From an uncultured Gammaproteobacteria bacterium (GTDB lineage: Bacteria > Pseudomonadota > Gammaproteobacteria > Pseudomonadales > Cellvibrionaceae), in NCBI GenBank assembly GCA_966096785.1, contig CBHTVU010000001.1, forward strand, positions 8,850 through 72,849: a stretch of 64,000 nt of DNA, given 5' to 3'. Every line of letters starts with the position of its first letter. The stretch's first letter is position 1. Shown piece by piece: positions 39,907-64,000 of the stretch. The notes beneath the pieces are model-generated. The model searched no databases. It saw only the letters and a program-made list of their open reading frames with translations, and was not told where the DNA came from. Position numbers and translations under genes: made by a program.

Positions 39907-40112
39907 CCATTCTACCAACCACCGGCAACGCAACATTGTCAGCAACTTTAAATCCGTCCCATGCTTTCGAATTGCTTTTTGTGCTACCTCTTTTAAGTGT
40001 TTTACGATATTTGTTACATCCTGATCCATAGTTATATAATTACAAATTTACTATATGAAAACAGTGAAATAATTTTGTTCAAAATAATAAAATTAATTTC
40101 TAACTTGGCTGC

Positions 40113-43743: not shown

Positions 43744-43815
43744 CGCGCGGTAGAGCAGGGGCAGCTCGGTAGGCTCATAACCTATAGGTCGGTGGTTCGA
43801 ATCCATCCCGCGCAA
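43744..43815 (+). tRNA. tRNA-Met (anticodon CAT) with initiator (fMet) hallmarks
   Basis: Hand-folded cloverleaf: acceptor CGCGCGG/CCGCGCA with a C1-A72 mismatch; D-stem GAGC/GCTC (A11:U24); anticodon loop CTCATAA; T-arm GGTGG-TTCGAAT-CCATC. Closely parallels E. coli tRNA-fMet. No encoded CCA. Confidence 0.85.
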
Positions 43816-43885
43816 CAGTCTTTTTAGCGATGAAAGCAGAAGAGGTTAAAGTAACATTTGTTTAATTCGTATTAATTCTGCTAAT

Positions 43886-45940: not shown

Positions 45941-46261
45941 ATGAAACCACTATTGTTATCCTTAACGCTACTGCTGTCGTGTAAATGCCTAACCGCCCAA
46001 ATCAAGTTACAAAAAGAGGAAGGCAAACCTATTATGATCTTACACAACGCGCCAGCCTATAAAATCATAGATACTGCCGCGAAGTATTTTAATTATCAGG
46101 TAGTTTATCGGTTTAATAAAGAACGTATCAATGATCCTTGGGCCGGAACAATGCCTTTGCAAAGTGTTGATAAGGTAATGACTGGTATTGCATATGCCCA
46201 GGATGGTTTATGTTACACTATAAAAAACAATAAACTAATTGTTGAATTGGTGGAAAATTGA
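45941..46261 (+). CDS. secreted protein resembling the C-terminal (STN/DUF4974-like) domain of FecR-type anti-sigma factors
   Basis: 106 aa. Signal peptide MKPLLLSLTLLLSCKCLTAQ. LHNAPAYKIIDTAAKYFNYQVVYRF...WAGTMPLQSVDKVMTGIAYAQDGLCYTIKNNKLIV follows the pattern I recall for Bacteroidota FecR C-termini (F.n.pL..vL..l...Y.v.i.f....ftg.f......vl..i......l.y.i.g..i.i). Confidence 0.4.
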   Translation: MKPLLLSLTLLLSCKCLTAQIKLQKEEGKPIMILHNAPAYKIIDTAAKYFNYQVVYRFNKERINDPWAGTMPLQSVDKVMTGIAYAQDGLCYTIKNNKLIVELVEN

Positions 46262-46266
46262 CAGTA

Positions 46267-48241: not shown

Positions 48242-48497
48242 AATTAACAGTCGGCTTAAATCGTTGCGCATTAGTAAGACCGAGTTTGCAGCAATGGTAA
48301 AGGTTCCACCTTCTGCCGTATCAAAATGGCTGAGTGGGTCACATAACTTTACTATTGCAACACTTGTAGAGATACAAAGCGCTTTAATGATTAATTTTTT
48401 TGATCTGGGCGATAGCAAAAGTGATAAAGCTTGTTTCCCTTGCAATTATGAGTTTTGTATTTATGACAGCAAAACACAAGTACCATATTACATTTGA
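48210..48497 (+). CDS. XRE-family HTH protein
   Basis: 95 aa; RISKTEFAAMVKVPPSAVSKWLSGSHNFTIATLVEIQSAL. Confidence 0.6.
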   Translation: MKEISQQIANKINSRLKSLRISKTEFAAMVKVPPSAVSKWLSGSHNFTIATLVEIQSALMINFFDLGDSKSDKACFPCNYEFCIYDSKTQVPYYI

Positions 48498-49140
48498 AGA
48501 GCTGGCTATGCGGGGCGCGCAGGTCCTGGCAAAACAAGGTCCGGTAACTTATAAACAGGCATTAGCACAAATCAATAGAATTATGTCAAACAGCAAAGGT
48601 TATAACGCCTACGGCCAAATCTACCGCAACATTAAATCATGTGGCGACAATGCCCCCAAGCTCCAGCAGATCCTGGATGATCACATGAGCCTTTTTGTTA
48701 TGGCAAAAGGATCAACGCATAATCATCAGGCATGGCCAGGCGGCTATTTACAGCATGTTGCCGATTGTATGACCATAGCCAGGCGGTTGCTCAACAACAC
48801 TCCGCCCAGCTGGCCGGTACCGTTCTCCTTGGGCAGTGTTGTGCTCGTACTGTTCCTGCATGACATTGAGAAGCCATTTATGCAGAAGCGCATGGCAGCT
48901 GATCCTGAAATGCGATTATGGAGCGATCAACAGCGCATGGCGTTTAGAAGAAGCTTAATGGCTGAATACAAGATTGCTATTACAGAGGAAGAGGACATCG
49001 CACTTACCCATATACATGGCGAAGGAGGGGCTTATAGCAGCAAGCAGCGTGTCATGAACGAGCTGGGTGCCCTGTGCCATGCTGCTGACGTGCTAAGCTC
49101 CAGGTTGTGGTGGAATAGAAATAATCCGAAAAATATCTAA
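48463..49140 (+). CDS. HD-domain phosphohydrolase-like protein
   Basis: H...HD pattern (GGYLQHVADCM...VLVLFLHDIEKPF...HIHGEGG). The start is uncertain: ATG 48463 (35-nt overlap) or ATG 48508. Confidence 0.55.
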   Translation: MTAKHKYHITFEELAMRGAQVLAKQGPVTYKQALAQINRIMSNSKGYNAYGQIYRNIKSCGDNAPKLQQILDDHMSLFVMAKGSTHNHQAWPGGYLQHVADCMTIARRLLNNTPPSWPVPFSLGSVVLVLFLHDIEKPFMQKRMAADPEMRLWSDQQRMAFRRSLMAEYKIAITEEEDIALTHIHGEGGAYSSKQRVMNELGALCHAADVLSSRLWWNRNNPKNI

Positions 49141-53260: not shown

Positions 53261-53545
53261 TCAATATAAAGACTCCAGCAAAACTTTAACGCCTGGCACA
53301 ACAGCCCAAAACGCCGGCAACTTATCTGGAGCAATATCCATATGATCTAATGATAGAATGTAAACAATAGGCAATGGCACCTCAAGTGTATTAGCTATCT
53401 TTATCATTGTGGCATGCTCAGGATGATGTTTATTATTCTCTATCAAGCTCATTGAGGTTGCTGATATACCAACCAGGTTGGCAAGTTCATATTGCTTTAG
53501 ACCACGCTCTTTTCGGAGTCTTTCTATTACAATACCTAAATTCAT
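53261..53545 (-). CDS. XRE/Cro-C1-type repressor-like HTH protein
   Basis: ATG at 53545 (MNLGIVIERLRKERGLKQYELANLVGISATSMSLIENNKHHP...). The track start at 53566 is TTG. One of only two minus-strand genes in the plus-strand half of the window. Confidence 0.7.
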   Translation of the reverse strand: MNLGIVIERLRKERGLKQYELANLVGISATSMSLIENNKHHPEHATMIKIANTLEVPLPIVYILSLDHMDIAPDKLPAFWAVVPGVKVLLESLY

Positions 53546-53891: not shown

Positions 53892-54033
53892 GGGCGGGAT
53901 GATTACATTTCGATGGGGGCCGGCAAATCGCGGGGAAACGCGTCTAAAATGACCCGGGGCGGTGCGATTTGGCCAATTTTGGATCGAATTTGGGCGAATT
54001 AGGGGTAAATAGTAAAATGCTCGCGGGAAATGC
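53892..54033. repeat. phased G-tract/A-T-tract repeat array (iteron-like)
   Basis: About 9 units of GGG(C)G-n-AAAT/ATTT at 10-13-bp spacing. The tightest stretch is GCGATTTGG CCAATTTTGG ATCGAATTTGG GCGAATTAGG GGTAAATA (53964-54011). Confidence 0.5.
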
Positions 54034-54201
54034 TCAAACTTATGTAATATATCTTATGTTAAATAGAATTTGCCTATCCCCTACCCTAGCATGATTGTCA
54101 ATTAATTACATATGCGCGCAGGAACGCATAACTAAGAACTTAGTCAATAATCCCCTCCGCTTTTCCTCCCGCTATACTTAATAATTCCCTATTTTGTAGT
54201 T

Positions 54202-54558
54202 GTGACAAGCGTTATACTATACATCGCCCACACCAACAGCACTTTAAAGCGCTTTACAGGCCACACAGAGAAACAAATTGTGCTGTTGGATCAATTGCAC
54301 AGGATTGGCAAGCCCTGCACTTATTCGCATTTATACAACGTTTTAGGCGATATGAATTGTACGTTAAATCACAGAGTCTACAATGCTATTTTAAGGCGTT
54401 GTATTGACAAGGGTTATATAACGCGTACTCAGGTTGGAAGGAATGTATTATTTGCTATTACTTTGTCAGGAAAGCAATTGCTCTATAGTTTTAGTATTGA
54501 GCTTGACAAGATTGTAAAGGCCGATATTGCAAAGCATGGCAATGGTTTGCCGTCATAA
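54202..54558 (+). CDS. winged-helix DNA-binding protein candidate
   Basis: 118 aa, GTG start. LLDQLHRIGKPCTYSHLYNVL...RRCIDKGYITRTQVGRNVLFAITLSGKQLL resembles a MarR/PadR-type wHTH. Confidence 0.45.
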   Translation: MTSVILYIAHTNSTLKRFTGHTEKQIVLLDQLHRIGKPCTYSHLYNVLGDMNCTLNHRVYNAILRRCIDKGYITRTQVGRNVLFAITLSGKQLLYSFSIELDKIVKADIAKHGNGLPS

Positions 54559-54585
54559 TCTGACTGTAATTGTTTTATATTTATT

Positions 54586-54621
54586 CCCAGTCAATATATA
54601 CTGACTGGGATTGTTGTTTTT
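54586..54621 (+). terminator. intrinsic terminator
   Basis: CCCAGTCA-ATATATAC-TGACTGGG followed by ATTGTTGTTTTT. Confidence 0.6.
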
Positions 54622-55234
54622 AAGGGCATATACTTATCTGTTAATAAATATTAACACTTAATACCTCAACTATTCTGTTAATATCGCTTGCCAGATTATC
54701 AATAATATTGTAATATTGTGGTGTTGTTACAGCGATAGGATAGTGGTAAAGATAATGTGGTAATGACACAAATAGCTCTTTGGTCGAATAGGTTGGATTG
54801 CTCTAATTACAGATCAGTATTGCTGCTAAGTTGTAAGCACTACAGGCACCTAATAGATGTTAACGTGTTGAGGTAAGTTCGCTAAATGTTAACCACTGGA
54901 TTTAAAGATCAGGCTATTGAGTGTACAGCAATATGAACGCTACAATGTAATTGTAGGTTACCACTTATAACTATATTCTTATAGGTCTTATAACAGCTGG
55001 TAAATATCTGCAACAAACGGTTAAACGGTGTGGGAATGCAATAGGAGTAATTGCATTACAAATGGGTGTTTAACCGGTTAGTAGCCTTAAAGTTTGTTGT
55101 CAACAGTCTGTTACTGTTGTGAAATAATGATTAAAGAGCAATGATTAATGTATATGTCGTTACGCTGTGGAGATAACGCATATACACAGAACAATTGATT
55201 ATCAAAGTGTTTTAATAGTGTTTTTTGAGTCTAA
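54622..55234. other. gene-free AT-rich region with TGTTAA-type repeats and a composite cruciform
   Basis: No ORF of 60 aa or more in any frame. TGTTAA(Y) at 54639, 54676, 54858 and 54887. Nested inverted repeat CGGTTAAAC...AATGCAAT-AGGAGTA-ATTGCATT...GTTTAACCG (55019-55076). Confidence 0.5.
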
Positions 55235-55283
55235 CCCCATATAATATCGTTTATATGGGGTTTTGTGTTTATAAAACACTTAT
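55235..55283 (+). promoter_or_regulatory. hairpin + conserved box cassette EC01
   Basis: Stem CCCCATATA/TATATGGGG, then TTTTGTGTTTATAAAACACTTAT|ATG(55284). Confidence 0.6.
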
Positions 55284-55757
55284 ATGAAATTCTTTAATAA
55301 TTGCAAAACGCTTGAAGAGGTCAAAAAGCTGTACAAAAAGCTTGCATTAGAACACCATCCTGACAAGGGCGGCAATACAGAAACTATGCAAACGATAAAT
55401 ACTGAATATGCGTTTATATGTGCAAAGCTCTTAAAGGGTGAAAACCTAACGGATGAACAGATCAATGAAGAAATGAATTTATCTGAAGAACTTAGGCAAG
55501 CAATTGAGCAAATTATACATTTGCCGGGTATTACTATTGAGGTAGTTGGTTATTACATTTGGGTTACTGGTAACACCTACCCAGTAAGAAACGAATTAAA
55601 GAGCGCAAAGTTTGTTTATCATGGTACAAAAGAATGTTGGTATTATGCCAATGCAAAATTTAAAGTAAGAGGTGGTAAAAAAACATTAGAAGAAATAAAG
55701 GCTAAGTATGGCAGCGCGACTGTTCACAAGTTTAAAACCAGCAAGGAAATTAATTAG
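55284..55757 (+). CDS. J-domain (DnaJ-like) co-chaperone protein
   Basis: 157 aa. LEEVKKLYKKLALEHHPDKGGNTETMQTINTEYAFI contains the HPD motif. Confidence 0.85.
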   Translation: MKFFNNCKTLEEVKKLYKKLALEHHPDKGGNTETMQTINTEYAFICAKLLKGENLTDEQINEEMNLSEELRQAIEQIIHLPGITIEVVGYYIWVTGNTYPVRNELKSAKFVYHGTKECWYYANAKFKVRGGKKTLEEIKAKYGSATVHKFKTSKEIN

Positions 55758-55763
55758 CACAAA

Positions 55764-55805
55764 GCCCGCAATGTTGCGGGCTTTGTTATTATAAAACACT
55801 TGTAT
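55764..55805 (+). promoter_or_regulatory. cassette EC02
   Basis: Stem GCCCGCA/TGCGGGC, then TTTGTTATTATAAAACACTTGTAT|ATG(55806). Confidence 0.6.
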
Positions 55806-56063
55806 ATGTTGAACTATGATAAATTAATTGCACTCAACCCCACGGTGTATTCTAAGTTTACCAACTCATTAGGGCAAGAAATAGAGTTTGTTGAGCATCC
55901 AACTAAAGGAGAAGATTATCCCGTTATTTGCGTATGTCATGCCCTTAAACTTGCAGCGTGTAGTGACTTCTACGAAACGACTGATATGTTAGCCGATCAT
56001 AAGGAGTATGAACCTAAATTTATTGACGGTCAATTTTGGATTGGGAATTTCTTACACGAATAG
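55806..56063 (+). CDS. hypothetical protein
   Basis: ATG at the cassette-defined position (MLNYDKLIAL...). The track start at 55800 is a TTG inside the box. Confidence 0.55.
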   Translation: MLNYDKLIALNPTVYSKFTNSLGQEIEFVEHPTKGEDYPVICVCHALKLAACSDFYETTDMLADHKEYEPKFIDGQFWIGNFLHE

Positions 56064-56102
56064 GGCGCAATTTGCGCCCTATGTTATTTTAAAAACACTT
56101 AT
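56062..56102 (+). promoter_or_regulatory. cassette EC03
   Basis: Stem AGGGCGCA/TGCGCCCT, then ATGTTATTTTAAAAACACTTAT|ATG(56103). Confidence 0.6.
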
Positions 56103-56267
56103 ATGACTACAACAGAGCAGGAAATTGAATTAACGAAAATTCAATCAATAAATATTGCGGCTAAAGCGCTGGCGCAATCTGCGTTTTTGATAGGGGTTTC
56201 TTTAGACGTGCTGTTGCCTATGGCAACCGCATTAGCAGAAAAAGAGTTAATAAAACTAAAAGGGTAG
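56103..56267 (+). CDS. hypothetical small protein (54 aa)
   Basis: MTTTEQEIELTKIQSINIAAKALAQSAFLIGVSLDVLLPMATALAEKELIKLKG. Framed by cassettes EC03 and EC04; below the track cutoff. Confidence 0.45.
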   Translation: MTTTEQEIELTKIQSINIAAKALAQSAFLIGVSLDVLLPMATALAEKELIKLKG

Positions 56268-56304
56268 CAATTATGCTACCCTTTGTTATTTATAAAACAC
56301 TTAT
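56262..56304 (+). promoter_or_regulatory. cassette EC04
   Basis: Stem GGGTAGCA/TGCTACCC (covers the preceding stop), then TTTGTTATTTATAAAACACTTAT|ATG(56305). Confidence 0.6.
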
Positions 56305-56391
56305 ATGAATCGTACTATCATGATCAATTTAGCTATTACAGTACTTGTTGTTTCTGCTAACATATTAGCACAGGTTGTACGGCATTTATAG
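56305..56391 (+). CDS. possible 28-aa hydrophobic micro-protein
   Basis: MNRTIMINLAITVLVVSANILAQVVRHL, with the ATG at the exact cassette position. Confidence 0.3.
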   Translation: MNRTIMINLAITVLVVSANILAQVVRHL

Positions 56392-56429
56392 TTGCAGTCA
56401 TGCACTCATTACGCAGTATAACACAGGAA

Positions 56430-56472
56430 CCCGGCTCAATGCCGGGTTTTGTTATTTATAAAAACACTTATT
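56430..56472 (+). promoter_or_regulatory. cassette EC05
   Basis: Stem CCCGGC/GCCGGG, then TTTTGTTATTTATAAAAACACTTATT|ATG(56473). Confidence 0.6.
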
Positions 56473-56748
56473 ATGCCTATAACATTTAATACGGGCGGGT
56501 ATTCGTATTGCACCATTGTACAGGATGCGATCGGTTGCCTGCATATCTGGGAGGGACAATGTATACCTACAAATAACCCAACATTGCCTAAAGTTGATGG
56601 CAATGAGTGTGATTTGTTTATAGAAAATGAATCGGATGTTAAGAACACGTTAGAGTATTTAACGGATGACGAAAGGGAATATATAAATAAAGGGTTCGCA
56701 ATACAGGTAAAAACTATTCCCGACGATTTATTGCTAAAAGATTATTAG
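56473..56748 (+). CDS. hypothetical protein
   Basis: MPITFNTGGYSYC... The track extension from 56449 reads through the box. Confidence 0.55.
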   Translation: MPITFNTGGYSYCTIVQDAIGCLHIWEGQCIPTNNPTLPKVDGNECDLFIENESDVKNTLEYLTDDEREYINKGFAIQVKTIPDDLLLKDY

Positions 56749-56780
56749 AACGGTCTCAGGATAAACAGAAGTACAAACAA

Positions 56781-56827
56781 CCCTACGCATGTCTATGCGT
56801 GGGGTTTTGTATTTATAAAACACTTAT
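56781..56827 (+). promoter_or_regulatory. cassette EC06
   Basis: Stem CCCTACGCAT/ATGCGTGGGG with loop GTCT, then TTTTGTATTTATAAAACACTTAT|ATG(56828). Confidence 0.6.
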
Positions 56828-57022
56828 ATGAATATTGAACAGATAAAGGCTAATTTACCAAAAAACATGCATGAAATAGACCGTAAGGAATACCTACGGT
56901 TACATAAACGTATAATTGAGATTGAAACAACCGGGTATAATAAACATGAATTGGAACCATTGCGTAACAGTGCCTTTAATATTATTAATCCATATATTTT
57001 AGATAGTAATTACAAAGGATAG
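56828..57022 (+). CDS. hypothetical protein
   Basis: 64-aa ORF framed by cassettes. Confidence 0.55.
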   Translation: MNIEQIKANLPKNMHEIDRKEYLRLHKRIIEIETTGYNKHELEPLRNSAFNIINPYILDSNYKG

Positions 57023-57058
57023 GGGCCATTTGGCCCTTTTTTATTTAAAAACACTTAT
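57023..57058 (+). promoter_or_regulatory. cassette EC07
   Basis: Stem GGGCC/GGCCC, then TTTTTTATTTAAAAACACTTAT|ATG(57059). Confidence 0.55.
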
Positions 57059-57310
57059 ATGAAATACGGCTTCAGCATAGTGAACACAATGCGCACTTAT
57101 AGCATTGAATTACGTGAACGCAATTACCCGGTATTTGCGGGTAGATACAATGCATATATGGCGGTTTATGGGCCGTTAAGCGGCGAATATATGGGCTTAA
57201 TTGAAACGCCTATAAAATTAGATATTACAGAAAATGATGTACCTGAGTTGCTGCTGAATGGAGAAAAGTTTGTAAAAGATAATGCATGTTGCAAGGTATC
57301 GGTTTGGTAA
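57059..57310 (+). CDS. hypothetical protein
   Basis: 83-aa ORF framed by cassettes. Confidence 0.55.
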   Translation: MKYGFSIVNTMRTYSIELRERNYPVFAGRYNAYMAVYGPLSGEYMGLIETPIKLDITENDVPELLLNGEKFVKDNACCKVSVW

Positions 57311-57345
57311 ATAATTGACGGTTTTTTAGCAGGTAGTACAAACAA

Positions 57346-57392
57346 CCCTATACATTTCTATGTGTGGGGTTTTGTTATTTAAAAACACTTGT
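57346..57392 (+). promoter_or_regulatory. cassette EC08
   Basis: Stem CCCTATACAT/ATGTGTGGGG (two G-U pairs), then TTTTGTTATTTAAAAACACTTGT|ATG(57393). The 5' flank GTACAAACAA is shared with EC06. Confidence 0.6.
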
Positions 57393-57593
57393 ATGAATAT
57401 GCCATATTTCAAACCGGGGTTATTACATCTTATTTTTGAGAATGAAACCGGTGAACAATTTATAGATGTAAATGGTTACCCTACTTTACAGTTAGCAGAA
57501 GTTGCAGCCGAATATTATAAACGCGGTAGATTTAGAATGTCAGGTTCAATAGTGGTAGGAGTTTATATTTGTCAGACAATTAAGCCCGCCTAA
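57393..57593 (+). CDS. hypothetical protein
   Basis: MNMPYFKPGLLHLIF... The track extension from 57360 lies inside the hairpin and box. Confidence 0.55.
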   Translation: MNMPYFKPGLLHLIFENETGEQFIDVNGYPTLQLAEVAAEYYKRGRFRMSGSIVVGVYICQTIKPA

Positions 57594-57625
57594 TTGGCGG
57601 GCTTTTGTATTATAAAAACACTAAA
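57584..57625 (+). promoter_or_regulatory. cassette EC09
   Basis: Stem GCCCGCC/GGCGGGC, then TTTTGTATTATAAAAACACTAAA|ATG(57626). Confidence 0.6.
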
Positions 57626-57883
57626 ATGATCACAATCTATAATTGGCATGAACCAACCACATCCTTAAGCCGCTGTAAGCCTATAGAGTGCAACAATACA
57701 ATGTCATTGGCCCGCTCATTTAGCCAAATAGGCAAGGCAAAGCTGGACAGCTCAATTGTTAGTATAACCCTTAAAGACGAAAACACGGGTAAAACTATAC
57801 GTATTGAATTTGATAATGAGGCAAGGAAAAAAATATTGGAATGGTTTAATATTGAACAGGAAATAGCAAAAGCCCGCGTTTAG
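57626..57883 (+). CDS. hypothetical protein
   Basis: MITIYNWHEPTTS... Start set by the cassette. Confidence 0.55.
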   Translation: MITIYNWHEPTTSLSRCKPIECNNTMSLARSFSQIGKAKLDSSIVSITLKDENTGKTIRIEFDNEARKKILEWFNIEQEIAKARV

Positions 57884-57910
57884 CGGGCTTTTGCTATTAT
57901 AAACACTTAT
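57871..57910 (+). promoter_or_regulatory. cassette EC10
   Basis: Stem AGCCCGC/GCGGGCT (the preceding stop lies in the hairpin), then TTTGCTATTATAAACACTTAT|ATG(57911). Confidence 0.6.
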
Positions 57911-58186
57911 ATGAAGTACATTTTTTTGTTACTGTTAGCATTCAACAGCACTAAAGGCATTGCACAAGATAAAAAGCCTATAGTACAATGCAAAGGAACT
58001 ACAGTGAAAGGCGTGCAATGTATGCGCAAAGCAAAGGAAGGCACAAAGGACAACGCTTATTGCAGCCAACACAACCTTGACGCGCCGCGCTGCGCAGGTC
58101 ATACTGGCAGCGGTGTGCGCTGTAAAAGAATAGTCGCAAAGGAAGGGGATAAATGTCATGACCACGTTTTTCAAAAACGCGCATAA
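57911..58186 (+). CDS. secreted Cys/His-repeat (putative zinc-binding) protein
   Basis: 91 aa. Signal-like N-terminus and two repeats: GVQCMRKAKEGTKDNAYCSQH and GVRCKRIVAKEGDKCHDH. Confidence 0.5.
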   Translation: MKYIFLLLLAFNSTKGIAQDKKPIVQCKGTTVKGVQCMRKAKEGTKDNAYCSQHNLDAPRCAGHTGSGVRCKRIVAKEGDKCHDHVFQKRA

Positions 58187-58208
58187 TCACCAGCTGAAAC
58201 CACATGAA

Positions 58209-58254
58209 CCCCGAACAGTGTTCGGGGTTTTGCTATTTATAAAACACTAGCAAA
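58209..58254 (+). promoter_or_regulatory. cassette EC11
   Basis: Stem CCCCGAA/TTCGGGG, then TTTTGCTATTTATAAAACACTAGCAAA|ATG(58255). Confidence 0.6.
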
Positions 58255-58719
58255 ATGAATACAGAAATTAAAACAGTAAGTGATAAGCAATATCAAGTAA
58301 CAAACACAGGTACTTACTACCATATTGAAACAAATTTGCAGGTTATAGAAGTACTTGAACAATGTCGCCTAAATAATACACGCATTCGCTTATTTTTAGG
58401 CGATACAATAACCGGTAAAGTATGGCCTGAACTTCACGATGTAACAGGCTACGTCAGTCGTTCAACGGGCGTTGTAAAGGTGCCAATTCTGCGTTATAAT
58501 AGTATTGCTGTTGGTGGTGGCGCAATACTTGATCATTGCATCATGAAAATAAGCGATACCAAAGGCAACGTATTGTATAAGGCTGGTAATTATAAGGAGC
58601 CGGTAATTGAGATAAAAGGCAATGAGGCGCAAGGCATACAGGTAATTTATGATAACGAACCGATTGCAAACTGTAAAACATTAAAAGAGGCGAACAAACT
58701 AAAAGAACAATTACTTTAA
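58255..58719 (+). CDS. hypothetical protein
   Basis: 154-aa ORF framed by cassettes. Confidence 0.6.
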   Translation: MNTEIKTVSDKQYQVTNTGTYYHIETNLQVIEVLEQCRLNNTRIRLFLGDTITGKVWPELHDVTGYVSRSTGVVKVPILRYNSIAVGGGAILDHCIMKISDTKGNVLYKAGNYKEPVIEIKGNEAQGIQVIYDNEPIANCKTLKEANKLKEQLL

Positions 58720-58757
58720 CCCCCGTAATGGGGGTTTTTGCTTTATAAAACACTTAT
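58719..58757 (+). promoter_or_regulatory. cassette EC12
   Basis: Stem CCCCC/GGGGG with loop GTAAT, then TTTTTGCTTTATAAAACACTTAT|ATG(58758). Confidence 0.6.
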
Positions 58758-59024
58758 ATGAAGCGCAAACATGATTTAATAATCTTTGCAATCTTTGCCG
58801 CCTTGGTGGTAGGGATAATGCTAGGGGCCAAAGGACAACAGGCCATACACAGCCGCAATTGTCCGGTTGCACCTGTAACTCTTACGAATATACTAGCAAG
58901 TAAGGATTATCAAATACAATGTAGTATTGATTCAGTATATGTATTTGATAACAACAGGCTAATAGGCGCTACTTTGTGGGGTAAAGATGGTATTGATTCA
59001 TTGATCTTAAAGGACAACGAATGA
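58758..59024 (+). CDS. small membrane-anchored protein
   Basis: 88 aa with an N-terminal TM (LIIFAIFAALVVGIMLGA). Confidence 0.55.
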   Translation: MKRKHDLIIFAIFAALVVGIMLGAKGQQAIHSRNCPVAPVTLTNILASKDYQIQCSIDSVYVFDNNRLIGATLWGKDGIDSLILKDNE

Positions 59025-59092
59025 AGCCCTACACAGTCGCGCTCCTGTTGCGCCTTGTCTGGTATGCAGTACTGATCTATTGTATTGCTTAA
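59021..59092 (+). CDS. possible 23-aa hydrophobic micro-protein
   Basis: MKPYTVALLLRLVWYAVLIYCIA. ATGA overlap with the upstream stop; its own stop abuts the EC13 hairpin. Confidence 0.25.
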   Translation: MKPYTVALLLRLVWYAVLIYCIA

Positions 59093-59130
59093 CCCCCGTT
59101 TGGGGGTTTTGTTATTTTAAAAACACTTAT
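59093..59130 (+). promoter_or_regulatory. cassette EC13
   Basis: Stem CCCCC/GGGGG with loop GTTT, then TTTTGTTATTTTAAAAACACTTAT|ATG(59131). Confidence 0.6.
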
Positions 59131-59703
59131 ATGAAATCAATACTAGATAAGACTAATGAAGCTCCCGCTAATACATTGCAATTTGGCAAGTTTAATGTCA
59201 ATACTTCCGCGCAAGCAATGACATTAATCGCTTATAGCGACGTACCACATTTGCACACATCTAACATTCCTTTCAGGCAGCTACAGTATGTTGCAGAATG
59301 TGAGAATTTTATCGACTTCTGCGCATGTTTGCGCATTATTCGCGGCTATAATGGTTTTGAAGCGGAAGAGGTTATTAAAAAAGGAACGCCACACTTTAAC
59401 ATTAAACGCTGGTATCCTAAAGGCAACGGCAATCATGGTATGAACATGTTTAACTTTCAGATTGCCCGCGAATATTCTGCTACCTTTTATATTCGATACG
59501 TTACACTGTTTAACAACAATAAGTTAATAGAGGTAGAAGGGGAGTATGGCGATTGTGAAGAGTTTACCCCAAATGATTTTGAGGATACAATGTTGTGTCT
59601 TAAGCATTTACTAAAACCTAGCGAATTTAATATTGAAAAATTGCCGTATGAGTTTCAAGGGCAAACACAATACTCTTATAGTGTGCGCTTTTGCTGGACT
59701 TAA
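59131..59703 (+). CDS. hypothetical protein
   Basis: MKSILDKTNEAPANTLQFG... The track extension from 59080 reads through the hairpin. Confidence 0.6.
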   Translation: MKSILDKTNEAPANTLQFGKFNVNTSAQAMTLIAYSDVPHLHTSNIPFRQLQYVAECENFIDFCACLRIIRGYNGFEAEEVIKKGTPHFNIKRWYPKGNGNHGMNMFNFQIAREYSATFYIRYVTLFNNNKLIEVEGEYGDCEEFTPNDFEDTMLCLKHLLKPSEFNIEKLPYEFQGQTQYSYSVRFCWT

Positions 59704-59714
59704 ACAACTTAGAA

Positions 59715-59766
59715 CCCCGTTGCAGTAATGCGCGGGGTTTTTGTTATTATAAAAACACTTAAACAT
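59715..59766 (+). promoter_or_regulatory. cassette EC14
   Basis: Imperfect stem CCCCGTTGCA../..TGCGCGGGG, then TTTTTGTTATTATAAAAACACTTAAACAT|ATG(59767). Confidence 0.55.
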
Positions 59767-60507
59767 ATGCAACAGGAAATCAATGGTAAATTTTTGATAT
59801 GTAACGGGTCAATTAATGCCACACTGACAATTGACGAATTGCTACAATTCAATGAAGATAATAAACGTACCGCTTTACGGTATTTTCAAATTGAAGGCCA
59901 ATATCGCCAGATCAATTCGGAAATTGATAGCAGTGTTTTTAAACCTATGCAGGAACTATATACTTATGAGACGTTAATGCAACTATCAGGCTCCGAACTT
60001 GATTTAGCACTAACAAAGGTTTACAATAACTTACAGCAACATGAAGCCCAATTGCAAGTCGCAACTAATAGGCTACATTATGATTTAGGTAAAAAGATAC
60101 ATGCGGCGACCATAGACTTAAAATTCTCCGGGGAGCTTAAATTAACCAAAGGGCAATTGTTGGGGTTTATTGATGCGATAGGTAACTGGAACGACTTTAG
60201 GGCAAATAAAGTCGCAAAAGCAATTAATTACCTACATGCCAGCGCGCCCCGTGTGAATTATGGTAATAATAATCCCAATACAGGGCGCTTGTGGCATGAA
60301 TGGTGCATTGCAGGTGATTCGATTTATATGAAATTTGGACTTTGTAATAGCGAAGCGCTGGCCACTATAAAGAATTGGTTTAACACAATTACAAATGTAA
60401 AAAGCATGGCCGGTGCGGATTCCTTTGAATTACATGTGCAGGAAATTCAAAACGAATATTCAAAAGACCAATGTTATATTGTAACCGTTGAATTATGGTG
60501 GGATTAA
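59767..60507 (+). CDS. hypothetical protein
   Basis: MQQEINGKFLICNG... 246 aa. Confidence 0.6.
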   Translation: MQQEINGKFLICNGSINATLTIDELLQFNEDNKRTALRYFQIEGQYRQINSEIDSSVFKPMQELYTYETLMQLSGSELDLALTKVYNNLQQHEAQLQVATNRLHYDLGKKIHAATIDLKFSGELKLTKGQLLGFIDAIGNWNDFRANKVAKAINYLHASAPRVNYGNNNPNTGRLWHEWCIAGDSIYMKFGLCNSEALATIKNWFNTITNVKSMAGADSFELHVQEIQNEYSKDQCYIVTVELWWD

Positions 60508-60525
60508 AGTTAGAGCCGTACAAAA

Positions 60526-60576
60526 CCCCGTTGCAACCAGTTTGCAACGGGGTTTTGTTATTATAAAAACACTTAT
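60526..60576 (+). promoter_or_regulatory. cassette EC15
   Basis: Perfect 11-bp stem CCCCGTTGCAA/TTGCAACGGGG, then TTTTGTTATTATAAAAACACTTAT|ATG(60577). Confidence 0.65.
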
Positions 60577-61233
60577 ATGAATACTTACAGTAAATACGTT
60601 GCTAACGTATTCTTAGCGAAATGCACAGAAAAGCACGAAAAAGGCGCAACCATTCCCGTTACTACTAAATATGGGAAAGAGAACGAATGTATTGTATTTA
60701 ACCTCATTTACGAAAAAGACGGTTATTACTATTACTCTATCATTCGCGCCGATGGGTTTAATTATCAAACCTGGGCGCAAAATAGAGCAGATCGCCGTCG
60801 TAGTTGGGCTGCAAGCGCTGAAAACAAGTCAGACGAATACTATCAGCGCTCTAACAAAGATCGCGCTTTCCTTAGCCTGGGTGAACCAATCAAAATTGGC
60901 CATCACAGCGAAAAAGGGCACCGTAAAATTATTGACCAGCAATGGGCAAACATGGGCAAAAGCGTTGCATATTCCAAAAAGGCAGAAGCTCATGAAAGTG
61001 TGGCTGAATTTTGGGAACGCAAAGCGAAGGATATTAACTTGTCCATGCCAGATAGCGCAGAATTTTTTACCTACAAGCTTGAGCTTGCTAATGCACACCA
61101 CCAGGAATTGAAAACAGACCCAAGCAAAAGAAGACATTCTATGTCGTTGCAGTACGCTAAAAAAGATGTTAATGAGTTGCAGAAAAAAGTAGCTTTAGCA
61201 CATAAGCTATGGGGAGATGTTGAGGAAAAATAG
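60577..61233 (+). CDS. DUF3560-like protein
   Basis: 218 aa. LSLGEPIKIGHHSEKGHRKIIDQQWANMGKSVAYSKKAEAHESVAEFWERKA matches my recollection of the DUF3560 core (GQPILVGHHSE..HR...), a family seen on plasmids and phages. Confidence 0.5.
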   Translation: MNTYSKYVANVFLAKCTEKHEKGATIPVTTKYGKENECIVFNLIYEKDGYYYYSIIRADGFNYQTWAQNRADRRRSWAASAENKSDEYYQRSNKDRAFLSLGEPIKIGHHSEKGHRKIIDQQWANMGKSVAYSKKAEAHESVAEFWERKAKDINLSMPDSAEFFTYKLELANAHHQELKTDPSKRRHSMSLQYAKKDVNELQKKVALAHKLWGDVEEK

Positions 61234-61251
61234 TGCTACATGGAAGAACAG

Positions 61252-61302
61252 CCCCCGTTGCAGTTTATCTGCGCGGGGGTTTTGTATTTTAAAACATCTA
61301 TT
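61252..61302 (+). promoter_or_regulatory. cassette EC16
   Basis: Imperfect stem CCCCCGTTGCAG/CTGCGCGGGGG, then TTTTGTATTTTAAAACATCTATT|ATG(61303). Confidence 0.55.
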
Positions 61303-61488
61303 ATGTATACAGTAACTTTCTCCGTCAAAATACAAATGGACATAGCAAGCGAACACGGCGCATTGGAGCAAATAAAAGAAACTATTGAGCTAATTAACTT
61401 GGACTTTCAACGTGCCGGGTATAATTCAACCCCGCAAATAATTGAAGGCTCCCAAAACATCTTATCAATTGAGAAAAGTACTTTATGA
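61303..61488 (+). CDS. hypothetical protein
   Basis: MYTVTFSVKIQMDIASEHG... 61 aa. Confidence 0.5.
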   Translation: MYTVTFSVKIQMDIASEHGALEQIKETIELINLDFQRAGYNSTPQIIEGSQNILSIEKSTL

Positions 61489-61496
61489 GACAAACA

Positions 61497-61544
61497 ACCC
61501 GGCAACAGCCGGGTTTTGTATTTATAAACACTAAATTATTACTT
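61497..61544 (+). promoter_or_regulatory. cassette EC17
   Basis: Stem CCCGGC/GCCGGG, then TTTTGTATTTATAAACACTAAATTATTACTT|ATG(61545). Confidence 0.55.
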
Positions 61545-61784
61545 ATGGCAAAAGCTGCTAAAAAAACAACAACAAAACGCAAACCAAGACCAAAGCCCAT
61601 AAAGGATGAATTATGGGTATTAAACCCTGATACCGGCGATGTAGATAAAGCATTCGTGAAGGGTGATAATTGTACCGGTTTTGATTATAACTCCGAAAGC
61701 GTCACCCCCTGGTTTAAAATTTACTATGGTAGTTTTTCTGTCACAACAATAGGAATACCTTATTCAGTTGTGGAGCCATATTAA
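61545..61784 (+). CDS. hypothetical protein with a basic N-terminus
   Basis: MAKAAKKTTTKRKPRPKPIKDELWVLNP... 79 aa. Confidence 0.5.
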   Translation: MAKAAKKTTTKRKPRPKPIKDELWVLNPDTGDVDKAFVKGDNCTGFDYNSESVTPWFKIYYGSFSVTTIGIPYSVVEPY

Positions 61785-61805
61785 AATAATTTTGGATTAG
61801 GCGCA

Positions 61806-61855
61806 CCCCGTTCACCGTTATGGTGGCGGGGTTTTTATTTATAAAAACACTTGTT
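61806..61855 (+). promoter_or_regulatory. cassette EC18
   Basis: Imperfect stem CCCCGTTCACC/GGTGGCGGGG, then TTTTTATTTATAAAAACACTTGTT|ATG(61856). Confidence 0.55.
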
Positions 61856-62215
61856 ATGGCCAATAAGACATTTAAAAATGAAATTTTACAAAATGCAGTT
61901 CGTTGTGGCTTCTTATCTGATAACCCAACAGCGCTAAACTACCATGTGCATTACCAGTACTTAGGAATGGTAGATAATCAGCTTGAATTTAGGCATATTA
62001 AAAACGGAGGCAGCATTATATTTTCATTGAAATTAATTACAGGACTATCAGAAAGGTTTAAACCTGCCGCTGAATTTAAGTTTAAGTTCACAGATAAAGA
62101 CGCCGATCTTATAGAGGCGGGGTTAATAGCGCTGTCAGTTAGTAAGCCTGAGAAGCTACAGGAGATTGAAGGGTTAATAGAATACATTCACAAACAAAGA
62201 AGGGAGCTTAATTAG
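61856..62215 (+). CDS. hypothetical protein
   Basis: MANKTFKNEILQNAVRCGF... 119 aa. Confidence 0.55.
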   Translation: MANKTFKNEILQNAVRCGFLSDNPTALNYHVHYQYLGMVDNQLEFRHIKNGGSIIFSLKLITGLSERFKPAAEFKFKFTDKDADLIEAGLIALSVSKPEKLQEIEGLIEYIHKQRRELN

Positions 62216-62251
62216 TTACTGTTCCCGGCAAATAGTTATAGTATAGGCGCG

Positions 62252-62302
62252 CCCCGTTCACCATTTTTGGTGAACGGGGTTTTGTATTAATAAACAACGC
62301 TT
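62252..62302 (+). promoter_or_regulatory. cassette EC19
   Basis: Perfect 11-bp stem CCCCGTTCACC/GGTGAACGGGG, then TTTTGTATTAATAAACAACGCTT|ATG(62303). Confidence 0.6.
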
Positions 62303-62461
62303 ATGAAATGTTTATTTGATCAATGGTATGATGGCGAAGCACAGAACCTTAATAATTTTACTATAAAGTTATTTGAGGCGCTTATGGTAGCGGATGGTTT
62401 AAACAGGGATAAATTTAAAATAGCATGGCCAGAGTATTTTAAAGACTGCAAAAACTTTTAA
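62303..62461 (+). CDS. hypothetical small protein (52 aa)
   Basis: MKCLFDQWYDGEAQNLNNFTIKLFEALMVADGLNRDKFKIAWPEYFKDCKNF. Framed by cassettes; below the track cutoff. Confidence 0.45.
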   Translation: MKCLFDQWYDGEAQNLNNFTIKLFEALMVADGLNRDKFKIAWPEYFKDCKNF

Positions 62462-62469
62462 CAACATTC

Positions 62470-62512
62470 CCCCGTCAAATAGGCGGGGTTTTGTATTTAT
62501 AAAACACTTGTT
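62470..62512 (+). promoter_or_regulatory. cassette EC20
   Basis: Stem CCCCGTC/GGCGGGG (one G-U pair), then TTTTGTATTTATAAAACACTTGTT|ATG(62513). Confidence 0.6.
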
Positions 62513-62680
62513 ATGCCTAAATTTAAAATTCCTGTTAGTTGGCAAATGTCCGGCGAATATGAAATAATTGCCTTAACTAAAGAAGCCGCCATAAACATAG
62601 CCAACAATTTGCCATTGCCTGACGGTAATTATGTTGACAAATCTTTTGAAATTCGTGAGGATGAAATTGAAACAGAATAG
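62513..62680 (+). CDS. hypothetical small protein (55 aa)
   Basis: MPKFKIPVSWQMSGEYEIIALTKEAAINIANNLPLPDGNYVDKSFEIREDEIETE. Framed by cassettes. Confidence 0.45.
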   Translation: MPKFKIPVSWQMSGEYEIIALTKEAAINIANNLPLPDGNYVDKSFEIREDEIETE

Positions 62681-62718
62681 GCGCAATTTTGCGCCTATTT
62701 GTATTTAAAAACACTACT
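62679..62718 (+). promoter_or_regulatory. cassette EC21
   Basis: Stem AGGCGCA/TGCGCCT, then ATTTGTATTTAAAAACACTACT|ATG(62719). The hairpin is near-identical to EC03. Confidence 0.6.
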
Positions 62719-63114
62719 ATGAATTTAGAATCTTACTGCAATACACTTGCAGAATACAAAAAGTCGCAACCTGTTAGCGCTGCCTATCCACCTATTAAGG
62801 GTATCAACACGCTATGGGTGCCACTGTGGAGCGGCAAAAGAACTGCAACACTGAATCTAAACCACGGGGTTCCTAATTATGACACAAAAACTGGCATGGC
62901 CTACGGCGAAAATGGCAATTGTCAAACCCCCTACGTAATTATAGAAGTGCCGGAATGGTTTACTGACCGACATGTTGAAATAGTCGCAGAATTACTCTGT
63001 AAGGAGATGAACAAACCAGCTGGTTATCCAACCATCCGCGTGTTAAAGGCTGAACGCATTGCGGCAATTAAAAGAATTATTGGTACATTGCAGCCGGAAA
63101 CCATTACACAATGA
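62719..63114 (+). CDS. hypothetical protein
   Basis: MNLESYCNTLAEYKKSQPV... 131 aa. Confidence 0.55.
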   Translation: MNLESYCNTLAEYKKSQPVSAAYPPIKGINTLWVPLWSGKRTATLNLNHGVPNYDTKTGMAYGENGNCQTPYVIIEVPEWFTDRHVEIVAELLCKEMNKPAGYPTIRVLKAERIAAIKRIIGTLQPETITQ

Positions 63115-63139
63115 GGTGTAGGTTGTGATTTGCTTTCAA

Positions 63140-63183
63140 GCCCTGGTCAATGACCAGGGCTTTTGTATTAATAAACACTCGTT
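63140..63183 (+). promoter_or_regulatory. cassette EC22
   Basis: Stem GCCCTGGTC/GACCAGGGC, then TTTTGTATTAATAAACACTCGTT|ATG(63184). Confidence 0.6.
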
Positions 63184-63666
63184 ATGCAATCAAACCAGTA
63201 TAAAGTTAAATTCGTAAAAGAGAATGACGACGAATCGCAATCTGTTCTGGCTGTGTTCCCTGACCTCAAGGATCGTACATATGTTCGAGGCTACAGTCAT
63301 CAGGGCCAACATTGCAATGTTGATAGCGAATATTATTTAGGCTTAGAGGAAGCAAATAGGCGCGAATTTCTACCGCTTTATTTCGAGCTTGTTGGTCTTG
63401 GCTACAAGCTACTCGTAATAAACGATAATGAACCGTCGCCAGACCCTATTAAAAAAGCGTTTAGCAGCCCAACTAAAGAAACCAGAACAATTGTTGTTTA
63501 CCAGGATGGATGCGTTAGGCTTTTCGACCAATCCAACACAGAGGAAGATACTGCAAAGGTTATAGTATATGAGCCTGATGAATTTAATGAGCTTTCAAAA
63601 GCGTATCAGGAAATAATTGACGGCGAAGAACTTTACGAGATTCAACAAGCCATACAAGCCCCGTAA
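63184..63666 (+). CDS. hypothetical protein
   Basis: 160-aa ORF framed by cassettes. Confidence 0.6.
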   Translation: MQSNQYKVKFVKENDDESQSVLAVFPDLKDRTYVRGYSHQGQHCNVDSEYYLGLEEANRREFLPLYFELVGLGYKLLVINDNEPSPDPIKKAFSSPTKETRTIVVYQDGCVRLFDQSNTEEDTAKVIVYEPDEFNELSKAYQEIIDGEELYEIQQAIQAP

Positions 63667-63697
63667 CCGGGGCTTTTTGTGTTAATAAACACATACT
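63657..63697 (+). promoter_or_regulatory. cassette EC23
   Basis: Stem AGCCCCG/CGGGGCT (the preceding stop lies in the loop), then TTTTGTGTTAATAAACACATACT|ATG(63698). Confidence 0.6.
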
Positions 63698-63868
63698 ATG
63701 TCTAAACAAAGTAAAAAGAAGTATAAATTTACCAGCACTGGCACTGGCGAAGTATCAGAAATCATAGATGCATTAGAGAAGGTTTTAAGTGGATTAAAAG
63801 CATTAAAAGAAAATCAGCCTATTAATTTAAAATGGGAGGATAAAACCCTTTATACTGAGATTAGGTAA
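63698..63868 (+). CDS. hypothetical small protein (56 aa)
   Basis: MSKQSKKKYKFTSTGTGEVSEIIDALEKVLSGLKALKENQPINLKWEDKTLYTEIR. Framed by cassettes. Confidence 0.45.
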   Translation: MSKQSKKKYKFTSTGTGEVSEIIDALEKVLSGLKALKENQPINLKWEDKTLYTEIR

Positions 63869-63870
63869 AC

Positions 63871-63917
63871 AATAGCCCCAATTACGGGGCTATTGTTATT
63901 TAAAAACACTTATACGT
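63871..63917 (+). promoter_or_regulatory. cassette EC24
   Basis: Stem AATAGCCCC/GGGGCTATT, then GTTATTTAAAAACACTTATACGT|ATG(63918). Confidence 0.55.
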
Positions 63918-64000
63918 ATGACATATACAAACATTCTGCCTACCATTAATACCATGCCAAGGTTTCATATTCTAAAAGTAACAATACTTCCCGCATCGCA
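63918..64000 (+). CDS. hypothetical protein (5' fragment, continues beyond the window)
   Basis: ATG at the cassette position; the frame is open to the window end (MTYTNILPTINTMPRFHILKVTILPAS...). Confidence 0.4.
   Translation, partial: MTYTNILPTINTMPRFHILKVTILPAS

Follow-up and report, generated by a model that had tools for sequence, protein, structure and literature searches.

Hairpin-and-box cassettes ahead of small genes in an uncultured phage as candidate terminator and start-signal units

Why would a phage place the same short composite sequence before two dozen small and mostly unrelated genes? The question arises in a stretch of 64 kb (the window, whose coordinates are used throughout) taken from the 79,059-bp contig CBHTVU010000001.1, which belongs to an uncultured phage. 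Near its end lies an array of genes, each expression unit of which is headed by a cassette made of a GC-rich hairpin, a T-tract and an A/T-rich box with an AAACAC core. We tentatively favour the reading that these cassettes are self-contained units in which a terminator is combined with a compact, non-canonical promoter and leader, and that they also serve as recombination linkers. They would then be analogous, and not homologous, to the promoter-early stem-loop (PeSL) cassettes of T4-type phages. The evidence for this reading, and the alternatives to it, are set out below.

Anatomy of the cassettes

Reading of the region 54000–64000, anchored on AAACA[CAT], gave 24 cassettes on the plus strand, from 55233 to the window edge (Table 1). 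The order of parts is always GC-rich hairpin, T-tract (mostly TTTTGT), A/T stretch, AAACAC core, 4–13 nucleotides (nt) and ATG, and apart from the box region nothing between hairpin and ATG is conserved in sequence. A loose fuzzy regular expression returned hundreds of meaningless matches, and a 26-nt position weight matrix (PWM; 30.5 bits) built from the copies was used in its place. The 24 copies score 19.6–36.3 bits on this matrix, and the best score on either strand of the rest of the window is 15.0. The box core AAAACACT occurs 18 times where 1.8 occurrences are expected, and all 18 are inside the array. Two copies have the variant cores given in Table 1; the other 22 read AAACAC. The distance from core to ATG is 4 nt in 13 copies and 5 nt in six, the remaining five having 6, 7, 8, 8 and 13 nt.

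Table 1. Features of the window, with the position of the box core and start codon for each cassette
Feature	Position	Strand	Core	ATG	Remarks
Structural block	248–30100	−			portal, large terminase, SU10-type capsid protein, crAss-muzzle-like protein, 1965-aa protein
1965-aa virion-module protein	14870–20767	−			GNAT acetyltransferase domain and LPD38 'polyvalent protein' domain
Small-protein block	30156–54558	+			several helix-turn-helix regulators, FecR_C-like protein, M50 site-2 protease
Winged-helix gene, 118 aa	54202–54558	+			adjoins gap upstream; weak Pfam winged-helix matches; syntenic with array in six lineages
Gene-free gap, ~0.67 kb	54559–55232				conserved blocks and covarying hairpins in alignments across lineages
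Head hairpin	55149–55186				loop CGCYGTGRRGA conserved, stems differ in all six lineages
Anti-box 1	55206–55213	+			AGTGTTTT, exact reverse complement of AAAACACT; conserved in L141, L151, L180, L181, L136
Anti-box 2	55217–55224	+			AGTGTTTT, 11 nt after anti-box 1, 8 nt before first terminator hairpin
Cassette 1	55233–55283	+	55274	55284	hairpin 55233–55262, T-tract; J-domain protein
Cassette 2	55763–55805	+	55794	55806	
Cassette 3	56060–56102	+	56093	56103	
Cassette 4	56259–56304	+	56295	56305	28-aa hydrophobic protein
Cassette 5	56426–56472	+	56462	56473	
Cassette 6	56779–56827	+	56818	56828	hairpin paralogous to that of cassette 8
Cassette 7	57021–57058	+	57049	57059	
Cassette 8	57344–57392	+	57383	57393	G.U pairs in hairpin
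Cassette 9	57582–57625	+	57616	57626	
Cassette 10	57871–57910	+	57901	57911	zinc-finger-like DUF5763 protein
Cassette 11	58206–58254	+	58242	58255	core to ATG 7 nt
Cassette 12	58718–58757	+	58748	58758	unit includes box-less 23-aa ORF 59021–59092
Cassette 13	59091–59130	+	59121	59131	
Cassette 14	59715–59766	+	59753	59767	core to ATG 8 nt
Cassette 15	60522–60576	+	60567	60577	DUF3560 protein
Cassette 16	61250–61302	+	61292 (AAACAT)	61303	
Cassette 17	61496–61544	+	61526	61545	core to ATG 13 nt
Cassette 18	61805–61855	+	61845	61856	
Cassette 19	62251–62302	+	62292 (AAACAA)	62303	weakest copy, 19.6 bits
Cassette 20	62470–62512	+	62502	62513	
Cassette 21	62677–62718	+	62709	62719	
Cassette 22	63138–63183	+	63173	63184	
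Cassette 23	63656–63697	+	63687	63698	
Cassette 24	63872–63917	+	63904	63918	ORF extends past window end

Across 73 boxes from six phage lineages (that of the window and the five relatives described below), every complete unit starts at the first ATG that follows its box, mostly at a distance of 4–8 nt, and no box unit without an open reading frame (ORF) was found. All 24 array units carry the box, and none of the approximately 70 other genes of the phage does. Within the array, a 23-amino-acid (aa) ORF at 59021–59092 has no cassette and is joined to the preceding gene by an ATGA overlap; a box-less second gene coupled to the first gene of its unit is also present in the relative L136 (7550–7702). 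The box marks expression units, mono- or bicistronic, and not every start codon. Of the 22 array proteins scanned, 19 have no Pfam match at E ≤ 0.01, and a literature search with the literal box motif returned unrelated papers only.

The original prediction had described 24 composite copies on one strand and small proteins of 28–246 aa, including a J-domain and a DUF3560 protein, and both descriptions were confirmed. It had also placed a cassette before every gene, which holds for the 24 units and not for the 23-aa ORF, and had called the copies tandem, where they are in fact dispersed, one per expression unit. Its range of 36–52 nt for the intergenic gaps was too narrow (27–87 nt, median 51). 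The G of TTTG, said to lie 18–19 nt from the ATG in most copies, is at 18–20 nt in 15 of the 21 that could be scored, and the overlap of the hairpin with the previous stop codon, described as frequent, is seen in 9 of 23 cases.

The hairpins preceding the boxes have predicted energies of −12 to −28 kcal/mol in all 24 cassettes and run into a T-tract, which is interrupted in three copies (cores 56093, 62709 and 63904). A consensus scan of 54500–64000 found 31 terminator-like sites, against 7.8 ± 3.3 in shuffled sequences. When 57 cassettes from four phages were compared, the fold was stronger as plus-strand RNA in 38 and as the complement in 12 (Wilcoxon p = 1.4e-5), and the stems held 44 G.U pairs. 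For example, the hairpin of cassette 8 reaches −15.4 kcal/mol on the plus strand and −6.8 kcal/mol as the complement. A compensatory G-C to A-T change distinguishes the cassette 5 hairpin of the window from its counterpart in L141, and compensatory changes also separate the paralogous hairpins of cassettes 6 and 8. The fold bias and the compensatory changes together argue that the hairpins act in plus-strand RNA. The hairpin with its U-tract has the anatomy of an intrinsic (Rho-independent) terminator, as had been proposed, and would be expected to function as one.

Pattern and protein searches recovered five further uncultured phage lineages with the same layout of winged-helix gene, gap of approximately 0.6 kb and array. 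They are L136 (IMGVR_UViG_3300003322_000968, also represented as L001 and L089), in which some 19 cassettes are followed by convergent minus-strand genes; L141, from a soil metagenome; L151, on a 76-kb contig; and L180 and L181. Array genes are mostly unrelated or reordered among the six lineages, and between the window and L001/L089 the cassettes, approximately 80–97% identical, are the sole DNA similarity inside the arrays. The spacing from core to ATG differs by lineage, being 4 nt in the window and 5–6 nt in L151.

Comparison with L141, a closer relative, shows where homology begins and ends. One block (92% identical) extends from the head element across the hairpin and box of cassette 1 as far as the ATG, beyond which the first genes are unrelated. 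The other (81%) starts inside the box of cassette 4 and ends at the ATG of cassette 5. Within it are the 28-aa ORF with its 3' region and hairpin, followed by the box of cassette 5; the hairpin ahead of the cassette 4 box is unrelated in the two phages. Given these limits, with the hairpin travelling with the ORF upstream of it, the module is box–ORF–hairpin. Gene order is also reshuffled. The J-domain gene is first in the window array and third in that of L151, and the L136 array has a homologue of 63184–63666 early and one of 57911–58186 late. The expectation that breakpoints in related phages would fall inside cassettes was thus borne out, the L141 junctions lying in the box or at the ATG and gene ranks differing between the window, L136 and L151. 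The 27/28-aa hydrophobic protein of the second block (window 56305–56430, L141 1989–2110; C-terminus ANILAQVVRHL) is probably real, because it is conserved with synonymous third-position changes; the approximately 40 nt past the stop codon of the 28-aa ORF are conserved even better than the ORF.

Metagenomes scanned with a 39-bit pattern of the cassette yielded no arrays, only 45 isolated chance matches, and 185,579 representative bacterial genomes gave 28 isolated chance matches, with no arrays and no prophage or host. Cultured phages searched by megablast and distant blastn had no match to the array or to its head element, and the nearest cultured group, the Flavobacterium elemo phages, has no analogous cassettes. 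L139 (8880–14600) and L137 repeat a different upstream unit, TTTTGTAGAACTCCAAAACTTTCTTATCTTTG, which amounts to several uses of a canonical host promoter, and cassettes with repeated promoters may therefore be common among phages of this group.

Candidate readings of the box

In the reading that we favour, the GC hairpin and U-tract would terminate the upstream unit in plus-strand RNA, and the next ~25 nt (TTTTGT-WATTTAT-AAAACAC-TTRT) would restart expression of the following gene. As a promoter, this stretch would be compact, non-canonical and class-specific, its leader would be very short, and the invariant AAACAC core would lie at or beside the start site, 4–8 nt before the AUG. As the box is common to all units and to related phages, it would also serve as a homology patch for the swapping of gene modules. 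Moron-like units would then make the array a hyperplastic region, with the cassettes working as PeSLs do in T4-type phages. A dedicated regulator, encoded at the array head, probably recognises the core as well. That the box acts as a promoter, where transcription starts and what reads the core are all points that we infer. Read-through of 24 successive terminators would be negligible, and each unit therefore needs its own re-initiation signal; even if every terminator let 50% of transcripts through, gene 24 would receive almost none. In support of a promoter, the same cassette heads arrays in five other lineages, the neighbouring proteins of which are only 35–63% identical, and the modules appear to behave as self-sufficient, exchangeable units with a class-specific box.

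Which promoter class is to be expected depends on the host. The phage comes from an uncultured lineage, and Bacteroidota as its host phylum, suggested by the original prediction, is well supported. Only 6 of 71 non-array genes are preceded by a Shine–Dalgarno (SD)-like sequence, and the relatives of its large terminase among cultured phages, at ≤29.5% identity, all infect Bacteroidota (Flavobacterium, Cellulophaga, Tenacibaculum, Maribacter). The sigma-A promoters of Flavobacterium have a −7 box, TAnnTTTG, which spans −12 to −5 with the start site 4–5 nt downstream, and in Bacteroidota a −33 TTTG element lies 19–21 nt upstream of this box; T−12, A−11, T−8, T−7, T−6 and G−5 are nearly invariant, and G at −10/−9 almost never occurs (PMC6847099, PMC9723704). 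TAnnTTTG is present in none of the 24 cassettes, and the best alignments keep four of the six invariant positions in 23 of the 24, which equals the background median. Where the −33 element should lie, the cassettes have hairpin stems that vary in sequence. With the 3' half of a −7 box placed at the TTTG of the T-tract, G comes to stand at −10 to −12, in place of T−12 and A−11 and where real promoters almost never have it (PMC6847099). Between hairpin and ATG, none of the 24 cassettes contains a host-type consensus promoter, and sigma-70-like sites in 54500–64000 are at chance level (36 vs 34.3 ± 5.7 expected). Canonical promoters of the form TTTG-N19-TATCTTTG are readily visible in L137 and L139, unrelated Bacteroidota phages in which a homologue of an array protein from a relative is encoded. 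The box is also unlike the other flavobacterial motifs compared, namely TAnnTTGY, sigma-54, and the extracytoplasmic function (ECF) motif with CGT at −10; an ECF −10 element, 16–17 nt from its −35 AAC, would sit in codons 3–5 of unrelated ORFs, where there is no conservation. In these comparisons the box matches no described Bacteroidota promoter class, and the earlier view that it does not fit the sigma-A architecture stands. A partial likeness appears when the A of CAC is taken as +1. TATTTATA then occupies −12 to −5 and keeps T−12, A−11, T−8, T−6 and a 4-nt start spacing, and it is possible that TATTTATA and the core would form a weak host-like melting element plus a phage-specific core.

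The region before the array adds a further element to be explained. It had been described as gene-free, and it does contain no genes, but the description missed a conserved structured element with two reverse complements of the box (the anti-boxes of Table 1) and a terminator without an ORF. Counterparts of the gap are found in L141 (615–1250), L151 (14493–15150), L180 (13158–13790), L181 (15532–16200) and L136 (5281–5900), and its conserved blocks include TTAGCTCTTTGA, GGATTGCTCTAATTAC, CTAAGTTGTAAGCACTACAGGCAC and ATTTAAATGAYTAACGRGC. The head hairpin keeps its pairing through two-sided changes at 10 pairs in a three-sequence alignment and at 11 of 13 pairs in a six-sequence alignment; its strand bias is undecided, each strand being favoured by three lineages. 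A second covarying hairpin in the gap is CTACAATGTAATTGTAG. The order covarying hairpin, AATTGAT, two GTGTTT(T) motifs and terminator is common to the six lineages, with the variant TGTGTTT for anti-box 2 in L180 and L181, and no ORF lies upstream of the first terminator hairpin. The two anti-boxes are 11 bp apart in the window and L141, and 30 nt apart in L136. In L136, a third reversed core, ATAGTGTTTTTTG, with a hairpin and T-tract lies at 13100–13135, after the last plus-strand array gene and before the convergent genes; reversed cores therefore bracket that array, and each of its three anti-boxes is directly 5' of a hairpin on the plus strand. Reversed cores without the A/T element and without an ORF argue that the core is a recognition unit in its own right. 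A head element that carries complements of the box is new. In a search of Rfam 15, only the tRNA-Met of the window reached the gathering score, and 54500–55400 gave only chance-level matches. The gap may code for a long non-coding RNA, or it may serve as an origin or packaging site.

Four other explanations of the box were weighed. The least credible is that the cassettes are canonical promoters, read by host sigma-A, by a T7-like phage RNA polymerase or by an ECF sigma factor. TTTG does end the T-tract, ACACTTATA loosely recalls the CACTATA of T7/SP6-type promoters, and ECF −35 elements contain AAC, an ECF sigma factor being encoded by close relatives. However, the comparison with host promoters given above leaves the sigma-A version largely refuted, and no RNA polymerase gene or two-barrel catalytic motif was found in the 64 of 79 kb covered by the window. 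For the ECF version, neither the window nor the 20-kb stretches sequenced for L136 and L151 encode such a sigma factor, and its −10 element would also fall inside unrelated coding sequence. A general SD-independent translation module, A-rich, Kozak-like and read by the host ribosome, would fit a box (TWTAAAACACTTRT) that contains no SD and lies as an A-rich stretch 4–8 nt before the AUG. Bacteroidota use upstream adenines at −3, −6, −12 and −13 (PMC6847099), and the modal copy has A at −6 and at −8 to −11. We consider such a module very unlikely because some 70 other genes of the phage do without the box; in addition, the modal copy has T at −3, A-richness leaves the invariant C-A-C unexplained, the spacing to the ATG shifts between lineages, and reversed copies exist where there is no ORF at all.

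The anti-boxes bear on two explanations in which the core is an operator. In one, the box would be an RNA-level operator in the 5' leader, and its partner RNA would be encoded at the array head. A plus-strand non-coding RNA ending at the first, ORF-less terminator would present two single-stranded AGUGUUUU seeds that pair with (U)AAAACACU(U) 4–8 nt upstream of the AUG, giving joint control of the translation or stability of array mRNAs. These units would be transcribed either from a start in the A/T part of their cassettes or by read-through of the terminators, with antitermination set up beforehand at the head hairpin. This is possible, if somewhat unlikely, and it is compatible with the promoter reading as an added layer. 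Two exact complements of the core do lie 8–19 nt before the ORF-less terminator, the order of elements is kept in six lineages, the three anti-boxes of L136 are each immediately 5' of a plus-strand hairpin, and complementarity to the consensus box, read from the sequence, reaches 10 nt. The predicted duplexes average −11.5 kcal/mol with array starts and −8.0 for other genes, the box is coupled very tightly to the ATG, and a single RNA facing at least 24 targets would explain an evolutionarily frozen core. However, the duplex is short and A/U-rich, its energies overlap in distribution with those for other genes, two of the three predicted folds leave the seeds partly paired, and neither a promoter for the RNA nor a canonical −7 box was identified in the gap. 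The flanks do not covary, the boxes of L151 reading AAAACACC and its anti-boxes not following; the head hairpin has no strand bias; and inverted DNA sites for a protein would look alike. The specific proposal that the head may encode a small plus-strand RNA (covarying hairpin, two AGUGUUUU seeds, own terminator), co-regulating at least 24 independently transcribed ORFans through a shared 8–10-nt box 4–8 nt before the AUG, is more doubtful still. If it were true, any gene recombining in through the box would join the same regulon automatically, and ~45 nt would suffice for a terminator, a start signal that is non-canonical and SD-less, and an antisense handle common to all units. The other explanation, which we consider quite unlikely, treats the core as an operator in DNA, bound by a repressor or activator of the phage. 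Each unit would have one copy and the array head two inverted ones, and the protein could silence or time the whole block, much as happens at the stoperators of mycobacteriophage L5. An asymmetric site in a single orientation at 24 or more intergenic positions, with reversed copies at array boundaries, would suit such an operator, as would head copies one helical turn (11 bp) apart in the window and L141 and the small helix-turn-helix (HTH) regulators nearby (the winged-helix protein, a CI-like HTH protein at 53261–53545 on the minus strand, and an HTH_3 protein at 44411–44830). The winged-helix protein models as a MarR/PadR/AspA-type dimer, though, and such dimers normally bind palindromes and not an asymmetric 8-mer; the spacing of the head copies is not conserved, as the 30 nt of L136 show; no integrase or prophage copy was found, nor any array in the representative genomes; and an operator alone leaves the restart of transcription after each terminator unexplained.

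The promoter reading has difficulties of its own. No sigma factor, like no RNA polymerase or two-barrel motif, was found in the window, and T−7 and G−5 of the host −7 box are missing from TATTTATA. Leaders of 5–7 nt would be atypical, given that 87% of Bacteroidota leaders exceed 10 nt (PMC6847099), and across the 73 boxes the coupling of box to ATG is as tight as for a ribosome-binding element. The start site is placed from sequence. The reversed cores at the array head have no upstream A/T element, and a promoter alone leaves them unexplained. A comparison of hairpin-to-core with core-to-ATG spacing did not discriminate between the models. Promoter and RNA-level roles are compatible in a cassette that would combine a terminator, a start signal and a leader core acting as a regulatory handle.

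The phage genome around the array

The phage is podovirus-like. Its minus-strand structural block and plus-strand block of small proteins (Table 1) are followed by the gap of ~0.67 kb and then by the array. The winged-helix gene that borders the gap has homologues at the same position in L141, L151, L180, L181 and L136 (35–63% identity). Its AlphaFold model (pLDDT 75) has AspA, MepR, PadR and MarR as top Foldseek matches. On the dimer and palindrome grounds given above, it is not favoured as the reader of the box; a regulatory role in the gap is plausible for it. A 94-aa CI/Xre-type HTH gene (53261–53545) lies on the opposite strand within the plus-strand block, 0.7–1.5 kb upstream of the winged-helix gene, and its position is conserved in L180 (12150–12434) and L182 (11698–11982). 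This arrangement resembles a genetic switch, and no integrase was seen. The HTH_3 protein at 44411–44830 is common to the window and L136. No integrase was detected in the proteins scanned, and the core AAACAC/GTGTTT does not fit the attC core consensus GTTRRRY.

Other candidates for a reader of the box were set aside. A virion RNA polymerase was sought in the 1965-aa protein, which is an LPD38/GNAT polyvalent protein; the motifs DxDGD and DFDxD are absent from the large virion proteins. An ECF sigma factor is found only in the close relatives L145–L148, whose HD-family protein is 90% identical to that of the window. The locus that encodes it, as a 197-aa protein, in L145 (8386–9478) and L146–L148 is occupied in the window (45941–47214) by a FecR_C-like protein and an M50 site-2 protease, and these phages seem to carry interchangeable sigma/anti-sigma signalling modules. 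The best-conserved shared protein, of 230 aa (48448–49140), was dropped as a candidate factor because its family is widespread; one source gives some of the family members the name YhaM-like exoribonuclease.

Several further features of the plus- and minus-strand blocks were recorded. A tRNA-Met (CAT) gene lies at 43744–43816 in the plus-strand block, and the distantly related Flavobacterium elemo phages also carry a tRNA-Met. The 14-mer CCTATAGTTTAGGC occurs twice on the minus strand (14244–14257 and 29413–29426), a few nt upstream of structural starts, where it precedes the large terminase and the gene at 28740–29408; it may be a late regulatory motif. A stretch of 1.6 kb with few ORFs, 38441–40113, holds the only canonical Bacteroidota promoter of the window, TTTG-N19-TATATTTG, at 38519 on the minus strand, facing a TAATTTTG box at 40070 on the plus strand. 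A terminator-like hairpin at ~38437 on the minus strand is followed by the half-box TTTTTTGTTTATAAATAC. This stretch may be a control region.

Relation to known systems

The box is kept while proteins diverge to 35–60% identity, which points to a strongly constrained and undescribed recognition event. The box may define a phage-specific class of promoter, act as a leader operator, or do both. As a promoter, it would provide a portable, insulated expression part of ~25 nt for Bacteroidota, a phylum with few genetic parts. An anti-box RNA, if it exists, would represent a phage regulon with one seed and many targets. The arrays also offer a ready list of ORFans that are candidates for a role in host takeover or anti-defence.

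By function and evolution, the closest system appears to be the PeSL cassettes of the T4-type phages RB49 and phi1 (PMC2839356). A PeSL likewise joins a terminator stem-loop, often GGGG...CCCC, to an expression signal, is repeated before small ORFans of a hyperplastic region that form transcriptionally isolated units, and supplies homology patches for the insertion, deletion and replacement of genes (PMC2839356). The parallel, drawn in the original prediction, gains from the recombination junctions inside the box and the reshuffled gene order. However, a PeSL contains a host sigma-70 promoter (−35, −10 and AT-rich upstream sequence) and an SD over ~100 bp (PMC2839356), whereas here ~25 nt separate hairpin and ATG, with neither a host-type promoter nor an SD. 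The sequence, the host phylum and the virion type, podovirus-like here, are also different. The stem-loop is always upstream of the box in our cassettes, and PeSLs fall into five positional subclasses; their promoter and terminator activities were shown experimentally (PMC2839356), whereas those proposed here are predicted from sequence. A head element with reversed boxes is not described for PeSLs. Membership in the PeSL class would accordingly fail on the host-consensus promoter and on homology. Terminator/start cassettes that express and shuffle accessory genes are documented experimentally only in T4-type coliphages, and the present array would extend the principle to SD-less Bacteroidota phages with a different and very compact signal.

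By position, the closest system would be the SAS and ESAS repeats of Cluster K mycobacteriophages (PMC3203893), whose function is still unverified (PMC12699233). These asymmetric repeats lie 3–7 bp upstream of start codons, in a single orientation and in the non-structural part of the genome; they are linked to unrelated gene families, are absent from host genomes, include a lone reversed copy tied to no gene, and have an upstream inverted repeat in about half of the SAS copies (PMC3203893). In contrast to our A/U-rich box, which has no SD, the SAS consensus GGGATAGGAGCCC holds the SD core and can pair with 16S rRNA, and the ESAS inverted repeats are conserved in sequence without RNA covariation (PMC3203893), where our hairpins vary, are terminator-like and show compensatory changes. 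Sequence and host phylum differ as well. Membership would fail on sequence and SD content.

Other phage systems share single aspects of the array. The stoperators of L5 and Cluster A phages are many short, asymmetric intergenic sites, oriented with transcription and read by one small phage regulator. The number, asymmetry and orientation of the sites are alike in the two cases. Stoperators, however, are sites for the immunity repressor of a temperate phage and are spread genome-wide, whereas the sites here are confined to one array, each after a terminator, in a phage with no known integrase or prophage copy. Lambdoid morons are promoter–gene–terminator units (discussed in PMC2839356), and as independent small units with their own start and stop signals and accessory genes they recall the present modules. 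Morons are solitary, however, with ordinary host promoters and no shared flanks, and here at least 24 serial units share one cassette. If the anti-box RNA is real, it would resemble the C4 RNA of P1/P7 and the CI RNA of P4, antisense immunity RNAs of phages that lie upstream in the same orientation and carry two seeds, in being a small upstream RNA with two short seeds against downstream start regions. Those RNAs hit one or two targets, whereas here at least 24 would share one seed match. The early transcripts of the crAss-like phage phi14:2 have no common motif. What is new in the cassettes described here is the other host phylum, together with a much more compact, SD-less and non-canonical signal.

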